Positions 23,429 through 29,458 of a stretch of DNA of 64,000 bases are shown piece after piece (the stretch's first letter is position 1; every line of letters begins with the position of its first letter). Below the pieces are notes generated by a model. That model was not told the DNA's origin. It ran no database searches and saw nothing but the letters and a program-made list of their open reading frames with translations. The stretch is from a bacterium (GTDB taxonomy: Bacteria; Patescibacteriota; Patescibacteriia; JBAXGH01): contig JBAXGH010000001.1 of the NCBI GenBank assembly GCA_037139515.1, positions 16,101 through 80,100 on the forward strand. The letters run 5' to 3'. A program made the position numbers and the translations under genes.

Positions 23429-25003
23429 TTAGATAAGTGGTGCTCCGGTCATTTCAACCGGCTGAGTCAGGCCCATGATTCGGAGCACGGTTGGCGCCAC
23501 ATCCGAAAGCATTCCAACCGGCGGAATCAGAGCCAAATCAGTTACAGGACCGTTCGGACCAAACTGACCCTCATATTGTTTACCTACAATAATCAACGGA
23601 ATCGGATTCGTCGAGTGTTCTTTATCGATATCGCCAGTCTGCAAATTCAAGACCTCTTCGGCGTTGCCGTGGTCGGCGGTAATCAAAACCACGCCACCTT
23701 TTGAAAGTACGGCATCAATCACCTTTCCAAGGCATTCATCAACAACTTTCATGGCCGCAATTGTGGCTTTCAAATTTCCGGTATGCGCAACCATGTCGGG
23801 GTTGGCGTAATTCAGTACGATAAAATCGTATTTTTCTTCACGAATTTCCTTAATCACGCGATCGGTCAGTTCATAAGCCGACATTTCAGGTTTTTGATCG
23901 TAACTTGAAACCTTTGGTGAAGGAATAATCGCGCGGTCTTCGCCGGTAAAAGGATCTTCGCGAGTACCGTTGAAAAAGAAAGTCACGTGCGCGTATTTTT
24001 CCGTTTCCGCGATATGGAGCTGTTTCAAACCGGCTTCCGAAATCACGCGCGCAAGCGGCATGACCACGGTTTGCGGAGGAAAAGCTACGGTAAGCGGAAG
24101 TCCGGCTTCGTATTCCATCATCGTGATAAATTTCAGATTCTTGATTTTTTCGCGCTTGAACCCAGGATCTTCATCAAGCACAAAAGCTCGAGCTAGCTCG
24201 CGCGCCCGGTCCGAACGATAATTCCAAAAAATCACAGCATCACCTTCTTCAACAACAGCGACCGGTTTATCGCCATCCATCATCACGGTCGGCGGGATCT
24301 GTTCATCGTAAACTTCTTTAGCATACGAAGCCTTGAGCGCTTCTATCGGATCAGTCGCCTTTTCACCTTTGCCTTCTGTGATACATCGATAAGCCGCCTC
24401 CACGCGGTCAAAACGATTGTCGCGGTCCATGGCAAAATATCGGCCAGCCATAGAAGCTAGCTTGCCGATTTTAATTTCCTTCATTTTCGCGAGCAACGTG
24501 GCTACAAAATCAACACCGCTATTATAAAGAGAATCTCGACCATCAAGAAAAGCGTGGATGTAAACTTTTGATAAACCCTGACGCTTTGCAAAATCAAGAA
24601 GCGCATGAGCGTGAGTATCCATGCCATGAACTTTTCCGGAAGAAAGCAAACCCATCAAATGCAATTTCCCGCCAGTCTTTTTGACATGATTCGCGGCCTC
24701 AATAAAAGCCGGCATTTCAAAAAACCCTCCGGAGTCAATAGCATGAGCTAATCGCGGCAAAGATTGAAACAAAACTGTGCCGGCACCAGCGGTTAAATGC
24801 CCGACTTCCGAGTTCCCCATCTCGCCCCATGAAAGTCCGACTTCTTCGCCGCTCGCCCTGAGCGTCATCGACGGATATTTTTGGATTAGCTCTTTAAAAA
24901 CCGGCGTATCAGCACGCGAAACGCCATTGCCTTCGGTGTCCGGCGCAACTCCAAGTCCATCACACATGATAAGCACGACTGGCTTTGGTCTTTGTTCTGG
25001 CAT
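23429..25003 (-). CDS. gpmI: 2,3-bisphosphoglycerate-independent phosphoglycerate mutase
   Basis: VVLIMCDGLG...SEVGHLTAGAG N-terminal phosphatase-domain motifs. The start is taken at the internal MPEQRP. Confidence 0.85.
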   Translation of the reverse strand: MPEQRPKPVVLIMCDGLGVAPDTEGNGVSRADTPVFKELIQKYPSMTLRASGEEVGLSWGEMGNSEVGHLTAGAGTVLFQSLPRLAHAIDSGGFFEMPAFIEAANHVKKTGGKLHLMGLLSSGKVHGMDTHAHALLDFAKRQGLSKVYIHAFLDGRDSLYNSGVDFVATLLAKMKEIKIGKLASMAGRYFAMDRDNRFDRVEAAYRCITEGKGEKATDPIEALKASYAKEVYDEQIPPTVMMDGDKPVAVVEEGDAVIFWNYRSDRARELARAFVLDEDPGFKREKIKNLKFITMMEYEAGLPLTVAFPPQTVVMPLARVISEAGLKQLHIAETEKYAHVTFFFNGTREDPFTGEDRAIIPSPKVSSYDQKPEMSAYELTDRVIKEIREEKYDFIVLNYANPDMVAHTGNLKATIAAMKVVDECLGKVIDAVLSKGGVVLITADHGNAEEVLNLQTGDIDKEHSTNPIPLIIVGKQYEGQFGPNGPVTDLALIPPVGMLSDVAPTVLRIMGLTQPVEMTGAPLI

Positions 25004-25046
25004 AATGTGGGTAGTGTAACAAAAAGACACGATTAAGTCTGTTTCA

Positions 25047-26078
25047 TTACGATGACCAACAGATAGGAGTAAAACTCGCGATAAGTTTACTCGCATTTCC
25101 GTGTGAGCACAGCCCTAAATACGAAGTTGTTCTTTCTTTAGAAGATTCTTCTAGTAATCTTCGCATCATTCGTTTTTTTGTCGCGGTTCGTAGAATCCGA
25201 TGATCCGAAAAATGCACCCAGCCAAGAAAATCAACCCCCGAAGCCAACGTTTCGATAAACACTTTATCAGGGTGCAGCTGCAACTTTAATCGTCGGCACA
25301 AAAAGTCATCAATCACAGGTAGTAGACATTCAAGATATTGTTTTTCGTGATGCAAAAATACAAAGTCATCCGCATAACGCAGATAATACTTTACCCGTAA
25401 TTCGTGTTTTACAAATTGATCAAATTCATTCATGTACGCATTCGCGAGCAGCTGCGAGGTCAAATTCCCGAGCGGCAGACCAATTCCCCCGTCATTCCCG
25501 CGAAGGCGGGAATCCATTTTAGGGTAACTTGTCACAATAGTCCTAAGGAGATCAAAGATTCGTTCATCAAAAATATAGCGACGTAAAATTCCAAGTAATG
25601 TATTTTGATCAATCGAGGCAAAGAATTTTCGTATATCGCATTTTAAAACCCAACAGGTTCGACGATGATTCAAACTCACTTTCCGCGCAAAATCACGAAA
25701 ACGATTCATGGCCGCGTGCGTTCCCTTCCAATTTCGGCAAGAAAAAGAATCCGCAACAAAGCGCTGGTCGAAAAACGTATACAATTTGCGATATAATGCG
25801 TGATGTAAAACCCGGTCACGAACCGAAGCCTTGTGAATATGACGCCGCTTTGGGTCGTTCACGAAAAAGTCTTGATATATTCCATGACGATATTTAGCTA
25901 CACTTAGTTCCTCATGAAGTGCTAAAATATTGTCTACAAGATGCCGTTCATATTCCAACACATCAGGCTTGCCGTGTTTCCCACAAGAAAATTCGCGCCA
26001 TGCTTCAAATAAATTTTCTAACGAAATAATTTCTTCAAAACTACGTTTAAAGCACCCAATATGGTTACCCCCCCCCAA
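25047..26078 (-). CDS. diversity-generating retroelement (DGR) reverse transcriptase
   Basis: RT motifs including YLRYADDFV (YxDD) and the DGR-specific GLPLGNLTSQ (I/LGxxxSQ in place of the group II QGxxxSP). TR and VR lie 0.4-1.0 kb upstream on the same strand. The start is ambiguous: it is called as TTG inside a G9 run. Confidence 0.85.
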   Translation of the reverse strand: MGGGNHIGCFKRSFEEIISLENLFEAWREFSCGKHGKPDVLEYERHLVDNILALHEELSVAKYRHGIYQDFFVNDPKRRHIHKASVRDRVLHHALYRKLYTFFDQRFVADSFSCRNWKGTHAAMNRFRDFARKVSLNHRRTCWVLKCDIRKFFASIDQNTLLGILRRYIFDERIFDLLRTIVTSYPKMDSRLRGNDGGIGLPLGNLTSQLLANAYMNEFDQFVKHELRVKYYLRYADDFVFLHHEKQYLECLLPVIDDFLCRRLKLQLHPDKVFIETLASGVDFLGWVHFSDHRILRTATKKRMMRRLLEESSKERTTSYLGLCSHGNASKLIASFTPICWSS

Positions 26079-26082
26079 CGGG

Positions 26083-26436
26083 CTGAATGAACTCCCAATC
26101 CTTAAAAAGCTGACCGATGCCTACAAACTCTGGCACACGGCCTTTCGGCATCTGCCGAGACTTTCCCGCTTTACGCTTGGGGCTAAGGTCGACGCGATTT
26201 TTTGTGAAGTAATTGAGCATATTTTAACAGCAGGCTATGCAGCTCGAGAGAACAAGATTCTTTGGCTGCAAAGAGCCAGTATCAAACTCGATTCGTTAAA
26301 ATATTTTTTAAAATTAGCCTGGGAGCTGAAAGCACTTAACACTGGCTGTTTTTCCGAAATCTCACACAAACTGGTCGAAGTCGGAAAAGATTTGGGCGGT
26401 TGGCTGAAAGATCTTAAAAAGCAAACTCCCACATAG
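26083..26436 (+). CDS. avd: Avd-like four-helix-bundle protein (23S rRNA-intervening-sequence protein family), putative DGR accessory variability determinant
   Basis: LPILKKLTDAYKLWHTAFRHLPRLSRFTLGAKVDAI...VGKDLGGWLKDLKK matches the helical pattern of bAvd/PF05635 proteins. It is on the strand opposite to the RT. An ATG at 26061 would come into frame only if the C9 tract were C8. Confidence 0.55.
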   Translation: MNELPILKKLTDAYKLWHTAFRHLPRLSRFTLGAKVDAIFCEVIEHILTAGYAARENKILWLQRASIKLDSLKYFLKLAWELKALNTGCFSEISHKLVEVGKDLGGWLKDLKKQTPT

Positions 26437-26462
26437 GCGAGAGTTTGCAAGCAAGAAGAAAG

Positions 26463-26604
26463 TTGCGCACGGCCAGGAACCGATTGTCGGGATCCCACTG
26501 ATTACCGGGATTATCCCAGTTCAGGTTCAACTTACGCTTACCGGAATTCTCGTTCAAATACGGAACCTTACGATTACCGTCTGAATTCACGAAGTCCGAG
26601 CCGA
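26463..26604 (-). repeat. DGR template repeat (TR), 142 bp
   Basis: Matches 27003..27144 except at 20 positions. At 17 of these the TR has A on the minus (sense) strand. TR codons at variable sites are AAT/AAC/AAG/GAT/TAT. Confidence 0.85.
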
Positions 26605-26998
26605 TGTGTGCGTAATGCCGTCCGCTTCACCGCTTCCCGATTTCTCAAAAAGCTGTATCGCATTTGGTATCTTTGAATACCCTAGCATCACGCACCAAGT
26701 TTCTTCATACCAGGGACAAATCGAGAGCGCACTCACACAAAGCTTGCCTTGCATGATTCCGGCATACCGATAAATCCAGAGTTCGGCCGCCCACAGCCAT
26801 AGCGGTGGGAAACATATCGCCTAGACTCCGGTTAACATTATAACACCCAGTACCCGACTAATAAGAATCAAAGTAGGAGGGCTAAGCACCCGACCTCCAA
26901 AAATCAAAGTAGGAGGGTGTAAAAAAATTCGGATGGCCGAGTGTCCTAGGGCCTAAGAACCGGGAACAGAGTACCCAGGGACCAAGCGTCCAAGTTCC

Positions 26999-27958
26999 TC
27001 ACTTGCGCACGGCCAGGAACCGATTGTCGGGACCCCACTGACTACCGGGAAAGCCCCAACTCAAGCCCAACTCACGCCTACCGGAATTCTCGTTCAAACA
27101 CGGAACCCCACGACCACCGTCAGAATCCACGAAGTCCGAGCCGAGAGCTACGATCCAAGATTTTCTTTGAAGATCTGGTTTAGCCGCACCCAAGGCCAGT
27201 AATTCTTCAAGAGTCGCTGGGCGCAACCCGAGCGCATCCAGGCGATCTTCTATCTGCTTGGTAGTTAAGGTTTCGCCAAAGGCGACGGCGATAACTTCAA
27301 TTTCTGTTTTTTCTTTTTCCTTGCCAAAAATGTTTTTCAGAGCCGTTTTAGCACTTCGTTTCCGAGGAAAGTTCTTTTCATTGATATCGCCGTTTTTCCA
27401 GTCGTACTTCCCGGCCGCGATCATTTGTTCCAAGCTCTGACCATAATCAACTTCAACTTTTTCTTTAATTACTTTTTGATCTGGAAAACGAGTGAAAATA
27501 TTCTCGATATGAAGCTTAAAGATTCCCGGAAAAAGCGGGCCGATATAGGCTTTGATGTCAGGTCTGATTTCTTTCTCGCTTGTCGCGATTTGATCCAGGC
27601 GACAATCTAAAACAATCAGCGCGTCTTCTTTTAGATTGCGAGTTTCACGAATCTTGGCCACTCGCGGGTCGTTACCGCGACCAAAACCTTGAATCGGCGC
27701 TTCGATTTCATACAAGAAGATAAGCTCGTCTTTTGTGAGCAGTTCTTTTCTATTTATCTTTCGTTCGATGGCTGTGACTCGCTTCATGTCTGCGGACTGT
27801 TTCGCGTATTTTTCACCGTTCGGATATTCCTTTAGTTTTTTTCGCGAGCACATCGGCGATATAAGCATCAGTATTCTGGTTCGTACCGATGCCTCGGACT
27901 TCATTAAGATTGCCTTCGACAACATGAAGAGCGGCGCGCGGAATTTTCGGAGTTCCAT
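26999..27958 (-). CDS. DGR target (variable) protein, C-terminal portion carrying the VR
   Basis: The ORF ends 4 nt after the VR. Its N-terminal region overlaps the upstream ORF by 146 nt in another frame. Confidence 0.6.
   Translation of the reverse strand: MELRKFRAPLFMLSKAILMKSEASVRTRILMLISPMCSRKKLKEYPNGEKYAKQSADMKRVTAIERKINRKELLTKDELIFLYEIEAPIQGFGRGNDPRVAKIRETRNLKEDALIVLDCRLDQIATSEKEIRPDIKAYIGPLFPGIFKLHIENIFTRFPDQKVIKEKVEVDYGQSLEQMIAAGKYDWKNGDINEKNFPRKRSAKTALKNIFGKEKEKTEIEVIAVAFGETLTTKQIEDRLDALGLRPATLEELLALGAAKPDLQRKSWIVALGSDFVDSDGGRGVPCLNENSGRRELGLSWGFPGSQWGPDNRFLAVRK
27003..27144 (-). repeat. DGR variable repeat (VR) forming the C-terminus of the target gene
   Basis: VR encodes ...GSDFVDSDGGRGVPCLNENSGRRELGLSWGFPGSQWGPDNRFLAVRK followed by a stop. 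The TR equivalent encodes N/K/Y/D at the variable codons. Confidence 0.85.
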
Positions 27959-28859
27959 CTTGATCCATGGAATAGTAGATGGTTAGGTCGCCACTCGAAA
28001 GATAGCTTTTAGCCGTGGCATCACCCGCGATACACAGATTGGTATTGAATCCCTTCAAAGTTTCGGTGAGCTTAGTTTCATCAGAACCTTTCCGGTATGT
28101 TTTCCAAACTCCGCGAGTTTCTTTAAGCTGTTTTTCATCGAGTGGTACGAGCGAACGCAAAGTTTCGGCATATAAAATCGGGAATTTATAGCCTTTGGTT
28201 CTTTCTTTCTCTTGCTGATTCCCGGCATTGATACGGTCAAGCACCATGGCGAGCGCTTGGCTATTGAGTTCCGGATACGGTGCCGTGGTGCCTGGTTTGC
28301 GACCGGAATACTTGTTGGTTATGCGATCATAGCTTCCGGTCTGCAAAACTTCGCGAATCACATAGTATTTGAACCAATCCGGATAAGCGGCTTCGCCGGA
28401 GACGAGATAATCAATCCAAGCGTCGAGCGACTGGCGCTGATCTTCTATGACGGTTTCAGCTAGGCGATGCTTGGTTTCTTGTTTTACTCTTTCCGGAGCG
28501 CGTTCATAATCATCCATCTCACCACGTTCACGAAACATCTCTTCTTGATGTTTCCAATAGCTTTCTGGAATATCTGCGGCTTTGATGACGTATTTTTCGT
28601 GAAATCTAGTGCGCAATAATTCGATATTTCTTTCGCGTTTGCGTTCGTCAAGCTTTCCTTCTTTGTTTTTCGGATGCAAAACCGCATCAATGCGCTCGAA
28701 ATAATTGCCTACGAGCTTTTCTTTCGGCACAGCTTCCCCGGTTTCGGTCTGCGTACGACTAGCCGCGCGCAAAACCGGCTTCGAGCCAGGCAAGTCAGAG
28801 TATTTTTGAGAGATAATATCGTTTTCCATAATACGGGCATTATAACAAAAAACCGCCAT
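27813..28859 (-). CDS. hypothetical protein, possibly the N-terminal part of the DGR target split by a frameshift
   Basis: Same strand as the ORF 26999..27958 and overlapping it by 146 nt. No recognisable domain. Confidence 0.4.
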   Translation of the reverse strand: MAVFCYNARIMENDIISQKYSDLPGSKPVLRAASRTQTETGEAVPKEKLVGNYFERIDAVLHPKNKEGKLDERKRERNIELLRTRFHEKYVIKAADIPESYWKHQEEMFRERGEMDDYERAPERVKQETKHRLAETVIEDQRQSLDAWIDYLVSGEAAYPDWFKYYVIREVLQTGSYDRITNKYSGRKPGTTAPYPELNSQALAMVLDRINAGNQQEKERTKGYKFPILYAETLRSLVPLDEKQLKETRGVWKTYRKGSDETKLTETLKGFNTNLCIAGDATAKSYLSSGDLTIYYSMDQDGTPKIPRAALHVVEGNLNEVRGIGTNQNTDAYIADVLAKKTKGISER

Positions 28860-28871
28860 GGCGTGGCAGTC

Positions 28872-29105
28872 TTAATTGTTTCGTTCCAGGAATTTGAGTA
28901 GTGTCTCTTTTTTCAGACCAAGCGTACGAAGGTTATTCATCACTATGAAAGGCGGCAATGGATCATATTCAGGAATCACAATCAGCCTTAACGCACCAGC
29001 CTTTTTATAAATCCGATGATCACCTTTCATGCGATCAAATTCACAACCAACAGAAATAACAAATTTTACAAAAATCTTCCAGTCCACGGCCCCAAAATCC
29101 CCCAT
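28872..29105 (-). CDS. hicA: HicA-like (YcfA family) mRNA-interferase toxin
   Basis: GDHRIYK...LIVIPEYDPLPPFIVMNNLRTLGL resembles the HicA pattern GSHH...VPxHxxxLxxGTLxSILKQAGL. It lies 5 nt downstream of a HicB-like ORF. Confidence 0.5.
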   Translation of the reverse strand: MGDFGAVDWKIFVKFVISVGCEFDRMKGDHRIYKKAGALRLIVIPEYDPLPPFIVMNNLRTLGLKKETLLKFLERNN

Positions 29106-29110
29106 ATTTT

Positions 29111-29398
29111 TTATACAGAAGCTAAAATATCCATTCGCATCATTGAGTGGTTCACCACCTCTGGTGGGACCATAATTTTTTTAACTTTCTTCCAACCAAG
29201 ATCCTTCAATACCTGCTCTAGTGTTCCCATTCGAATGTGCTCCTCAAAAAAGATATCAACAATCTCGTGCCACATACGCTTGGCGTCTTCCTCGCTATTC
29301 CCACAAGTCGACAAATCTAAAGCCGGCGAATACGCAACATATGCGTTGCCTTCCTTAAAGATTGTAACAGGCAGCTTAACGGAAAAAACGTTTTTCAT
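29111..29398 (-). CDS. hicB: HicB-like (UPF0150) antitoxin
   Basis: N-terminal VTIFKEGNAYVAYSPALDLSTCGNSEEDAKRMWHEIVDIFFEE matches the HicB N-domain fold pattern. Confidence 0.5.
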   Translation of the reverse strand: MKNVFSVKLPVTIFKEGNAYVAYSPALDLSTCGNSEEDAKRMWHEIVDIFFEEHIRMGTLEQVLKDLGWKKVKKIMVPPEVVNHSMMRMDILASV

Positions 29399-29458
29399 AA
29401 CGCCGTCATATTAACAAAAACTATGTTAAAACACAATGCATTGATTAAATTCGCCCTT

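Follow-up and report, generated by a model that had tools for sequence, protein, structure and literature searches.

A Patescibacteria diversity-generating retroelement with an inverted avd gene and a conserved leader upstream of its template repeat

The window analyzed here, a stretch of 64 kb of Patescibacteria DNA, contains a genuine diversity-generating retroelement (DGR) consisting of a reverse transcriptase (RT) gene, avd as accessory gene, a template repeat (TR) as well as a variable repeat (VR) located at a target gene's 3' end. The assignment is based on an adenine-specific mismatch spectrum, an RT resembling 8ub7, matches of Avd to its families and more than 100 homologous cassettes. 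Very probably, the element is a chromosomal, Patescibacteria-specific DGR that appears to have the "B3" architecture and probably belongs to DGR clade 2, in which the VR would be mutagenized from an RNA template as proposed below. In the assembled copy, the target loses its frame at an A7 run and a C9 run puts the avd ATG out of frame, so this copy is either switched off, in decay, or the product of misassembly at the two homopolymers.

One more DGR in a DGR-rich lineage changes little by itself. The protein of ~610 aa that looks to be the commonest target of this RT clade provides a concrete handle on the role of DGRs in episymbiotic Patescibacteria. The comparative set also exposes directly testable cis elements, namely a structured leader 5' of the TR, a simple-sequence tract where avd meets RT, and an array of octamers following the VR. 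These bear on two questions unsolved for all DGRs: what controls their activity, and what guides the cDNA to its target.

Repeat pair and reverse transcriptase

26463..26604, minus strand: template repeat (TR), 142 nt, defined by TR/VR alignment and mismatch spectrum
27003..27144, minus strand: variable repeat (VR), 142 nt, covering the target gene's final 47 codons
25047..26078, minus strand: DGR reverse transcriptase gene, identified by Pfam RVT_1, PDB match and motifs

The TR and VR were aligned without gaps over 142 nt and shared 86% identity, with 20 mismatches. On the minus (sense) strand, the mismatches were 14 A>G, 3 A>T, 2 C>T and 1 T>C; 17 of the 35 TR adenines were changed, compared to 3 of the 107 non-adenines (Fisher p = 8.3e-10). 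A preliminary description of the locus had reported two 142-bp repeats with 20 differences, 17 of them on TR adenines, and our recount and substitution table gave the same result, with the differences concentrated on TR adenines. Opposite a T of the TR on the plus strand, the VR carried C or A as described, but never G, which had also been listed. Adenines of the TR fell in codon positions 1 or 2 with one exception (34/35), and the translations of the two repeats differed at 13 residues. The TR had been called non-coding and full of AAY codons; such codons were present (9 of 46), whereas a trivial 58-aa GTG ORF was found to span the TR. The VR was borne out as the final ~47 codons of a minus-strand ORF. 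The terminal 30 nt were the same in both repeats, with divergence beginning beyond them, and most relatives had CGCAAG at the VR end and CGAAAG at the matching TR site. No third copy of the repeat was found elsewhere in the 64-kb window.

The RT is 343 aa long if started by the TTG at 26078, which precedes a G-run and makes the start ambiguous. Its ORF was intact, every catalytic motif was present, and it matched Pfam RVT_1 (E = 9e-21). The top PDB relative was the Bordetella phage DGR RT (8ub7_A, E = 1.3e-40), and retron-type and group II intron RTs in PDB were far weaker (2e-16); its placement among DGR RTs is based on motifs and this best solved relative. The motifs GLPLGNLTSQ and RYADDF aligned across 40 homologs, and identity to the RTs of more than 100 related cassettes was 52-65%. 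An RT with YADD and LGNLTSQ close to the TR had been described earlier; both motifs were confirmed, and the distance was 384 nt instead of 385.

Target gene, avd and the avd/RT junction

26999..28829, minus strand: target gene for one protein of ~609-619 aa, ~609 aa if read from the ATG at 28829, which was placed by homology to P0001
27836..27842, minus strand: A7 run, read as T7 from the plus strand, located by three-frame translation, the fused protein and full-length homologs
26061..26436, plus strand (inverted relative to RT, TR and VR): avd accessory gene, identified by PF22296 and NF033474
26068..26076, no strand assigned: C9 homopolymer (G9 on the RT-sense strand), a candidate slipped-strand switch at the avd/RT junction

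The target was split over two ORFs (27813-28859 and 26999-27958) by a +1 frameshift at the A7 run, and A6 would restore the full ORF. A homolog search with the fused protein yielded 308 matches; among the 120 listed, nearly all were 600-650 aa long and most had 95-98% coverage. The family is conserved in at least 484 Patescibacteria species. No Pfam domain was found in the target or the listed homologs, and no transmembrane or signal domain was recognisable in the target. The C-terminal domain was predicted to adopt a C-type-lectin (CLec) fold, a prediction supported by many C-type lectin-like domains (CTLDs) and repeated on a full-length homolog, instead of the distinct, non-CLec target family suggested previously. 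The large N-terminal part had no good match to any solved fold.

The avd product matched PF22296 (bAvd; E = 1.1e-14, 55.3 bits, cutoff 40) and, below the 80-bit cutoff, NF033474 (NCBIfam DivGenRetAVD, 71.4 bits). An Avd-like ORF between RT and TR had been noticed before and is real by its PF22296 match, although it lies on the plus strand and is not co-oriented with the other genes. The inverted avd was kept in related cassettes, with avd and RT head-to-head. The Avd core was open from about 26080, and given C9, the ATG at 26061 was off frame by 1 nt; C8 or C11 would put it back in frame. With the target broken at A7 and the avd ATG out of frame with the Avd core, the element could not be regarded as "complete", as it had been called.

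The C9 tract was the sole G/C run of at least 7 within the window. At the same place, 86 of 104 related loci carried poly-G(8-12) or (GA)n, and 4 more carried another purine tract. Relative to RT, the tract lay mostly in the 5' UTR. Its length varied between contigs with 100% or 99.8% identical flanks, and because it differs between otherwise identical contigs, the data suggest a candidate phase-variation switch at the junction. No report linking DGRs to simple-sequence repeat (SSR) switching was found in the searchable literature, within which the junction tract is apparently unreported as far as it was searched.

Non-coding sequence, related loci and the state of the assembled copy

26837..26842, minus strand: TATAAT -10-like box in the context TGTTATAAT, at a conserved position just upstream of the leader
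26609..26830, minus strand: structured leader RNA of ~220 nt directly 5' of the TR, detected by covariance model R1
26455..26462, minus strand: pyrimidine stretch CUUUCUUC abutting the TR 3' end, with proposed pairing to GAAGAAA of the leader (26700-26706)
26416..26448, minus strand: 12-bp hairpin with tetraloop (26421-26448) followed by U5 (26416-26420), 14 nt past the TR, by RNA fold
26849..26998, minus strand: 3' flank of the VR, containing degenerate tandem repeats of 8 nt (NNCTTGG / NNCTTTGA), by CTT statistics over 38 loci

The interval between VR and TR had been taken for a spacer of 390 nt. It measured 398 nt and is functional non-coding sequence instead, in which a zone of octamer repeats, a box resembling a promoter and a structured leader RNA lie. 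The leader matched R1 with 105.9 bits (E = 1e-28), which is low for its family, in which 36 of 46 matches exceeded 140 bits; no match to the leader was found in Rfam. Covariation in the leader was strong: the family structure had 51 pairs at 92% pairing, 41 of these pairs with double compensatory changes, a level reached by none of 500 shuffles. The TATAAT box lined up with TATA(A/C)T across all related loci, and the target gene bears the identical TTGTTATAAT context 9 nt from its own ATG.

The hairpin past the TR folded with -20.6 kcal/mol (z = -4.5; equal stability in 0/200 shuffles), overlapped the avd stop codon and was kept, with its U-run, in aligned relatives. It is a candidate terminator-like element and/or Avd-binding stem-loop. 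Handa et al. (10.1101/2023.10.23.563531) described a stem-loop that binds Avd immediately past the TR 3' end, and this stem-loop and an upstream/downstream duplex are conserved, CPR included (10.1101/2023.10.23.563531). The duplex of CUUUCUUC with the leader was calculated at -10.5 kcal/mol, and just 1 of 31 post-TR segments paired better with the leader segment of the window. Compensatory pairing variants occurred at other loci, such as AAAUGAAGA/UCUUCAUUU at L066. Pairing of the leader with the post-TR segment is suggestive only.

In the VR 3' flank of 38 loci, the CTT count was 6.4 compared to 3.5 in shuffles (p = 7e-11), with 8 nt as the dominant spacing, and the octamer array trailed the VR with or without an adjacent TR cassette. 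The two 16-nt direct repeats described earlier do exist (26866-26881 and 26902-26917), but as the cores of 33-nt repeats. A GC-only block after the VR was absent, and a post-VR hairpin was not significant (z = -1.1).

The cassette of leader-TR-hairpin, inverted avd and RT was common to more than 100 related loci. It was found at about 35 of 84 target-anchored loci, and the leader model brings further loci. An RT-strand leader was present in 64 of 80 RT-anchored metagenome loci; in the leader-negative loci examined, the RT lay near the contig start with too little upstream sequence. All named homolog sources were Patescibacteria/CPR MAGs. No contig near-identical to the element of the window was found, the best RT relative being 65% identical. 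Three stand-alone units (L006, L065 and L080) kept leader, TR and hairpin without avd or RT, and their TR/VR mismatches were at adenines in 21/21, 16/18 and 15/15 cases, respectively. Because these units persist without avd and RT and their mismatches are still adenine-biased, they argue for the TR RNA as an independent unit with the hairpin as its end. The TRs were identical within each of three pairs of relatives:

L108/L110: VR differences at TR adenines, 5/5; differences upstream of the VR, 0 in 399 nt
L104/L105: VR differences at TR adenines, 17/17; differences upstream of the VR, 7 in 151 nt
L133/L135: VR differences at TR adenines, 14/15; differences upstream of the VR, 1 in 399 nt

Among near-identical relatives the TR stays the same, and VR differences are confined almost entirely to TR adenines; these comparisons indicate that the element class is active in relatives.

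An ordinary partial gene duplication beside an unrelated group II intron or retron RT, without mutagenic retrohoming, might also leave two similar repeats next to an RT gene. A small ORF contains the TR, and the top NCBIfam match of the RT was indeed a group II intron RT/maturase (TIGR04416, E = 1e-37), yet with 130 bits against a 300-bit cutoff. Retron models of NCBIfam were far under their cutoffs, and the Rfam search of the 64-kb window returned no matches, so no intron RNA or retron family was detected. The earlier view of the RT as DGR-type is upheld by the PDB comparison. The adenine-specific spectrum (p = 8e-10), the margin of 24 orders of magnitude by which a DGR RT leads the solved relatives, the Avd at the locus and an arrangement that recurs, with VRs still turning over at TR adenines, in more than 100 loci make such a duplication vanishingly improbable, and we consider it effectively refuted.

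A second alternative is that this DGR is dead or decaying, in which case the TR/VR pattern would be a fossil, the target a pseudogene and Avd untranslated, with nothing diversified now. The target is frameshifted whereas its homologs are full-length proteins of 600-650 aa, the avd ATG is out of frame, and 3 TR/VR differences are not at adenines. Decay is also documented in the family: L022 combined a vestigial avd with non-A mismatches, in L009 and L024 the leader was all that was left, and in L001-L003 the DGR was entirely missing. However, the RT ORF is unbroken with all catalytic motifs kept, the Avd core is still an open frame, 34 of 35 TR adenines stay at codon positions 1-2, and leader, hairpin and promoter box can each still be recognised. 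Moreover, 1-2 non-A mismatches were found in active relatives too, and each of the two defects lies in a homopolymer, the kind of sequence where assembly errors are most frequent and which also forms the classic reversible switches. We consider a dead or decaying element less likely than not.

Proposed mechanism and comparison with known systems

In the mechanism we propose for this DGR, a short non-coding RNA would be transcribed on the minus strand from the TATAAT-type promoter and would comprise the ~220-nt structured leader, the 142-nt TR, the pyrimidine stretch and the hairpin with its U-run. RT and a pentameric Avd would bind this TR-bearing RNA, and the RT would copy the TR to cDNA with misincorporation opposite adenines. 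The cDNA would then replace the VR, the last 47 codons of the conserved ~610-aa Patescibacteria protein. The transcript ends were placed from sequence, and the promoter, terminator and RNA-protein contacts are likewise putative. We infer that the leader may have a role in RT binding or priming, taking the place that spacer RNA 3' of the TR has in the Bordetella phage DGR.

DGRs are already known as common in CPR bacteria, their first survey in CPR/Patescibacteria reportedly being that of Paul et al. 2017, and the element of the window adds one ordinary case. Wu et al. 2018 (PMC5758913) describe the B3 architecture, dominant in CPR, as one in which avd and TR vary in order and orientation; the element of the window appears to fit that text description. 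DGR clade 2 is described as confined to Patescibacteria, with targets lacking recognisable domains (Roux et al. 2021, PMC8144416). As far as these descriptions go, the element of the window shares with B3 and clade 2 the Patescibacteria host, avd and TR in a non-canonical order and orientation, the single adjacent target with a C-terminal VR, the chromosomal location and a target without recognisable Pfam, transmembrane or signal domain, and no class-defining feature described there differs. The 5' leader, junction tract and octamer array found no mention in those passages of PMC5758913 and PMC8144416 that the comparison covered.

The Bordetella phage BPP-1 DGR (mtd-avd-TR-brt) resembles this element in adenine-specific TR-to-VR transfer, the Avd accessory protein, a homologous RT (bRT, E = 1e-40), a C-terminal CLec-fold variable domain (here predicted), a stem-loop directly 3' of the TR and possible pairing of the TR flanks (cf. 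the cPRT Stop duplex). It differs in that its avd is upstream of the TR and co-oriented, whereas avd is inverted here and head-to-head with RT. In BPP-1, 140 nt of spacer RNA 3' of the TR carry the priming adenosine, thumb ring and RT-binding stem; here, the transcript appears to stop ~45 nt past the TR, and it is 5' of the TR that the large, conserved and structured RNA is found. Neither a GC-only IMH nor a GC-rich cruciform past the VR was present, with tandem octamers in their place, and the element resides in a cell and not in a phage, with a target other than a tail fibre.

A broader reading, to which we give somewhat less than even weight, would combine class-wide stochastic ON/OFF control of mutagenesis through the junction tract with a DGR RNA that is a circular permutation of the one in the Bordetella phage prototype. 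Slippage in the homopurine tract, where avd and RT overlap head-to-head, would bring the avd start codon in or out of frame and alter the RT 5' region, so that just a subpopulation would diversify the target at any time, and C9 in the window would be an OFF phase and not a defect. In the permuted RNA, RT binding and priming would be served by the ~220-nt leader 5' of the TR and not by a 3' spacer. Phase variation by SSRs is known from the (TA)n promoter of Haemophilus influenzae hifA/hifB and from poly-G/C coding tracts in Neisseria and Campylobacter. In contrast to those systems, switching here is a prediction made from sequence, and the share of loci "ON" for avd (19/90) is that expected of random frames. 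As in those systems, two divergent genes share, at their 5' ends, a homopolymer or dinucleotide tract that is hypermutable, its length differs among otherwise identical sequences, and that length sets the frame of the avd ATG.

Retroelement, relatives and target gene

The preliminary description called a diversity-generating retroelement (DGR) at 25047-28859. The call was correct, several of its details were wrong, and the lineage and architecture of the element have already been described. The window DGR is of interest chiefly for the cis elements, found alongside it, that are shared across its class. The features are as follows.

25047-26078, minus strand: DGR reverse transcriptase (RT) gene, with a Pfam RVT_1 match
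26068-26076: C9 homopolymer, precisely between the start of avd and that of RT; no other G/C run in the window reaches 7 nt
about 26080-26436, plus strand: core of the accessory variability determinant (Avd), above the Pfam bAvd cutoff and slightly under the NCBIfam Avd cutoff
26421-26448, minus strand: hairpin with a 12-bp stem (-20.6 kcal/mol, z = -4.5)
26463-26604, minus strand: template repeat (TR), 142 nt, bearing the adenines
26609-26830, minus strand: leader RNA, 105.9 bits with the covariance model
26849-26998, minus strand: octamer zone, a GC-richer, degenerate version of the array
27003-27144, minus strand: variable repeat (VR), 142 nt, ungapped against TR and 86% identical
27813-28859 and 26999-27958, minus strand: target gene, two ORFs joined by a +1 shift at the A7 run 27836-27842 (T7 on the plus strand)

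On the minus strand the repeats differed at 20 positions (14 A>G, 3 A>T, 2 C>T and 1 T>C), and the A was always that of the 26463-26604 copy. The adenine-specific pattern described earlier thus survived a recount, with 17 of the 20 at TR adenines; 17 of 35 TR adenines were altered compared to 3 of the 107 remaining bases (Fisher p = 8.3e-10). All but one of the TR adenines (34/35) fell on the first two codon positions in the target frame, AAY made up 9 of 46 TR codons, and the two translations differed at 13 residues. No third copy of the repeat was present in the 64-kb window. The translations, RT motifs and 16-nt repeats reported earlier were all found in the sequence, while the VR-TR gap measured 398 nt instead of 390, and the plus-strand VR bases opposite TR thymines were C and A only, not C, A or G.

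The closest solved relative of the RT was the Bordetella phage DGR RT (8ub7_A, E = 1.3e-40), compared to 2e-16 for retron-type and group II intron RTs, and with the NCBIfam models for group II introns and retrons it scored far under every cutoff. The motifs GLPLGNLTSQ and RYADDF lined up with those of 40 homologs. A small perfect palindrome (TTCCCGC GAAG GCGGGAA) was observed inside the RT ORF at 25491-25516, where it encodes the extra segment …SRLRGNDGG…, and may represent a miniature inserted repeat. An inactivating effect of this insertion (residues ~188-198) was rejected, since it falls in a loop whose length varies among homologs. The Avd ORF of the preliminary description was confirmed by the Pfam bAvd match, and it lies on the plus strand, opposite to RT, TR and VR; a PDB sequence search with Avd gave no match.

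Among 84 target-anchored loci, about 35 carried an RT 52-59% identical to that of the window next to a target homolog, and nearly all VR/TR mismatches in these loci were at TR adenines. No DGR was found within 6 kb of three target homologs whose loci were inspected directly (P0001, P0002 and P0007). The order within the cassette was constant: leader, TR and hairpin came first, avd followed on the opposite strand, and RT came last in the orientation of the leader, so that avd and RT are arranged head-to-head. Relative to the target, the cassette itself was placed downstream and co-oriented, as in the window, downstream and inverted, or upstream and divergent. An RT-anchored metagenome scan added 589 relatives; none in the metagenomes was near-identical to the window for comparison of VR, A7 and C9, the best RT being 65% identical. 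The element also fits DGR clade 2 of Roux et al. (PMC8144416), which is restricted to Patescibacteria and has targets without recognisable domains.

The target extends beyond its 319-aa ORF: the two ORFs join across the A7 frameshift into a protein of 619 aa (609 aa when counted from 28829, the start by homology), with an N-terminal domain of ~500 aa. A6 instead of A7 would restore the ORF. The joined protein had 308 matches. Among the 120 listed, nearly all were 600-650 aa long, most covered 95-98%, none had a Pfam domain, and all named sources were Patescibacteria metagenome-assembled genomes. The family is encoded in at least 484 GTDB species. Pfam and NCBIfam searches of both target halves and a PDB sequence search with the target-family profile gave no match. 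At the fold level, likenesses of the C-terminal domain include many C-type lectin-like domains, and the earlier suggestion of a distinct target family without motifs of C-type lectins (CLec) is not supported at this level. This predicted CLec fold agrees with the expectation of Roux et al. (PMC8144416) that unannotated VR domains of the candidate phyla radiation (CPR) are new CLec variants.

The neighbouring genes (YceG, iPGM, HicA and enolase) indicate a chromosomal and not a phage setting. Directly upstream of the target gene, a HicA-toxin-family ORF (28872-29105, minus strand; Pfam E = 2e-7) was observed, adjoined by a small ORF without a Pfam match (29111-29398, minus strand) that may be its antitoxin. 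Several genes (28829, 24989-25025, 29384-29420, 44530, 34474 and 19389) share the context TTGTTATAAT...ATG of repeat family D2, in which a TATAAT-like box ends ~9 nt before the ATG; such spacing suggests that 5' UTRs are very short or absent in this organism.

Leader RNA and template unit

The VR-TR interval, called a spacer in the preliminary description, is functional sequence with a conserved box, a covarying leader RNA and a repeat array. In 31 aligned TR regions, a conserved TATA(A/C)T box was followed by ~230 conserved nt reaching TR, for which RNAalifold predicted 51 pairs; compensatory changes supported 43 of these. In a cleaner alignment of 25 sequences, 92.3% of cells were paired, compared to 73.4% in shuffles and ~43% when the partners were slid; double changes occurred at 41 leader pairs, and 0 of 500 shuffles matched any measure. 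A covariance model was built from this alignment and searched against the window and the loci. Besides the window, examples about 220-230 nt long were located in L074 (11429-11661) and L054 (5313-5543), and loci outside the training set were also matched. Of 80 metagenome loci anchored on the RT, 64 had the leader, in every case on the same strand as the RT and with its start ~770 nt before that of the RT; in those leader-negative loci that were inspected, the RT lay near the contig start and the upstream sequence was too short. The leader is present in essentially all loci of the RT clade with enough upstream sequence. It is absent from Rfam, with no match in a window scan or in an E-value-level scan of two consensus-like loci, and a tRNA scan of the window gave no match either.

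Two loci carried additional repeats. In L075 (16750-17271), a second TR/VR pair of 126 nt with 15/15 mismatches at adenines and a partial RT was observed on the same contig as the first DGR, at a distance of 7 kb; the leader model did not match this pair, which is therefore probably of another DGR class. In L030 (9735-13465), VR, leader and TR each occurred twice as identical sequences ~3.1 kb apart, so that the unit of target and TR has either been duplicated in tandem or been doubled artificially in assembly.

On the 3' side of TR, the aligned relatives showed a pyrimidine stretch followed by a hairpin and a U-run. A purine stretch of the leader can pair with these pyrimidines: GAAGAAA/UUUCUUC in the window, AAAGAAAA/UUUUCUUU in most loci and AAAUGAAGA/UCUUCAUUU in L066. 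Native and cross-locus duplex energies did not separate the majority loci; because these share AAAAGAAAA/UUUUCUUUU, the covariation comes only from divergent loci, and the pairing is suggestive only.

Units of leader, TR and hairpin without adjacent avd or RT were observed in L006 (7300-7700), L065 (10027-10420) and L080 (5067-5480), with unrelated sequence beginning directly past the U-run. Mismatches were at adenines in 21/21, 16/18 and 15/15 cases, respectively, without a local RT. We read these loci as showing that the TR RNA forms a unit of its own, with the hairpin as its end; the RT may act in trans, encoded at another locus, or its loss may be recent. The leader alone was kept in L009 and L024, and L022 retained a decayed TR.

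In the Bordetella phage DGR, a 140-nt spacer 3' of TR carries an Avd-binding stem-loop, the priming adenosine, a cPRT-Stop duplex whose other strand lies upstream of TR, a thumb ring and an RT-binding stem (Handa et al., 10.1101/2023.10.23.563531). The stem-loop and the upstream/downstream duplex have been predicted for many DGRs, CPR included (10.1101/2023.10.23.563531). The hairpin after TR and the pairing of the TR flanks match this picture, whereas most of the structured RNA lies 5' of TR here and 3' there. The leader may take over RT binding and priming.

Junction tract between avd and RT

The junction was surveyed in 104 related RT loci, among them L018, L026, L028, L030, L031, L048, L051, L056, L060, L068 and L085-L164.

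Tract types at the avd/RT junction (loci of 104)
Poly-G, 8-12 nt: 74
(GA)n, 17-43 nt: 12
Other purine: 4
None: 14

Tract length differed between L133 (G10) and L135 (G8), from the Ga0306869 and Ga0136601 contigs, whose flanks are 100% identical over 500 nt, and between L125 (G11) and L145 (G9), from the Ga0209343 and Ga0209542 contigs, with flanks 99.8% identical; two other near-identical pairs had equal lengths. The avd ATG was in frame with the Avd core in L133 and out of frame in L135, and in the window the ATG at 26061 was one base out of frame. An in-frame upstream ATG was present in 10 of 17 tract-less loci compared to 19 of 90 tract-bearing loci (p = 0.003), as would follow from an avd start on the far side of the tract together with slippage that scrambles the frames. 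In about half of the loci a start codon for the RT lay 0-31 nt downstream, which places the tract in the RT 5' UTR at those loci. We prefer to read the tract as a candidate phase-variation switch for the DGR. Alternatively, it could help RT translation as a purine-rich signal, or serve as a structural DNA element. A two-colour sequencing artefact was rejected as the origin of poly-G, since the tract is internal, keeps to one position, is replaced by (GA)n in some loci and recurs across the assemblies of many studies. No report of such a tract in DGRs was found in the searchable literature, which did not extend to the survey of Paul et al. 2017.

Octamer array and activity

CTT occurred 6.4 times in the 100 nt past VR compared to 3.5 in shuffles (38 loci, p = 7e-11). 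These counts were anchored on VR, as the tblastn alignments of many DGR-positive loci ended on the TR copy; several loci classed as DGR-negative carry the leader. A spacing of 8 nt was dominant (96 of ~205 consecutive spacings), with the motif NNCTT(T/A)G(A/G), and with this measured period a 10-11-nt phasing was rejected. Both 16-nt repeats of the preliminary description contain the canonical ACTTTGAT unit. The array trails VR with the TR cassette adjacent, inverted or upstream, and this independence of cassette position makes it part of the target site and not of the TR promoter. No significant hairpin followed the window VR (z = -1.1). As speculation, the array may have a role in target recognition, comparable to the cruciform near the IMH, the element at the VR 3' end in the phage DGR. 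Tandem 8-nt repeats after the target stop were seemingly also present in family members without an adjacent DGR (e.g., L019, L025, L027 and L052).

In the window copy, RT, TR, leader and hairpin appeared intact. The element had been called complete, and its target is frameshifted and its avd ATG off frame, both in homopolymers; 3 of 20 mismatches were at non-adenines. The A7 split taken by itself could stem from an error of assembly, mark a pseudogene or be another site of slippage. Taken together, the defects may reflect assembly error, reversible switching or early decay, the last being known in the family (L009, L022 and L024).

Turnover of VR at TR adenines in three near-identical strain pairs, each with identical TRs, demonstrated that the class is active in nature. 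VR differences were at TR adenines in 5/5 cases for L108/L110 (0 differences in 399 nt upstream of VR), 17/17 for L104/L105 (7 in 151 nt upstream) and 14/15 for L133/L135 (1 in 399 nt upstream).
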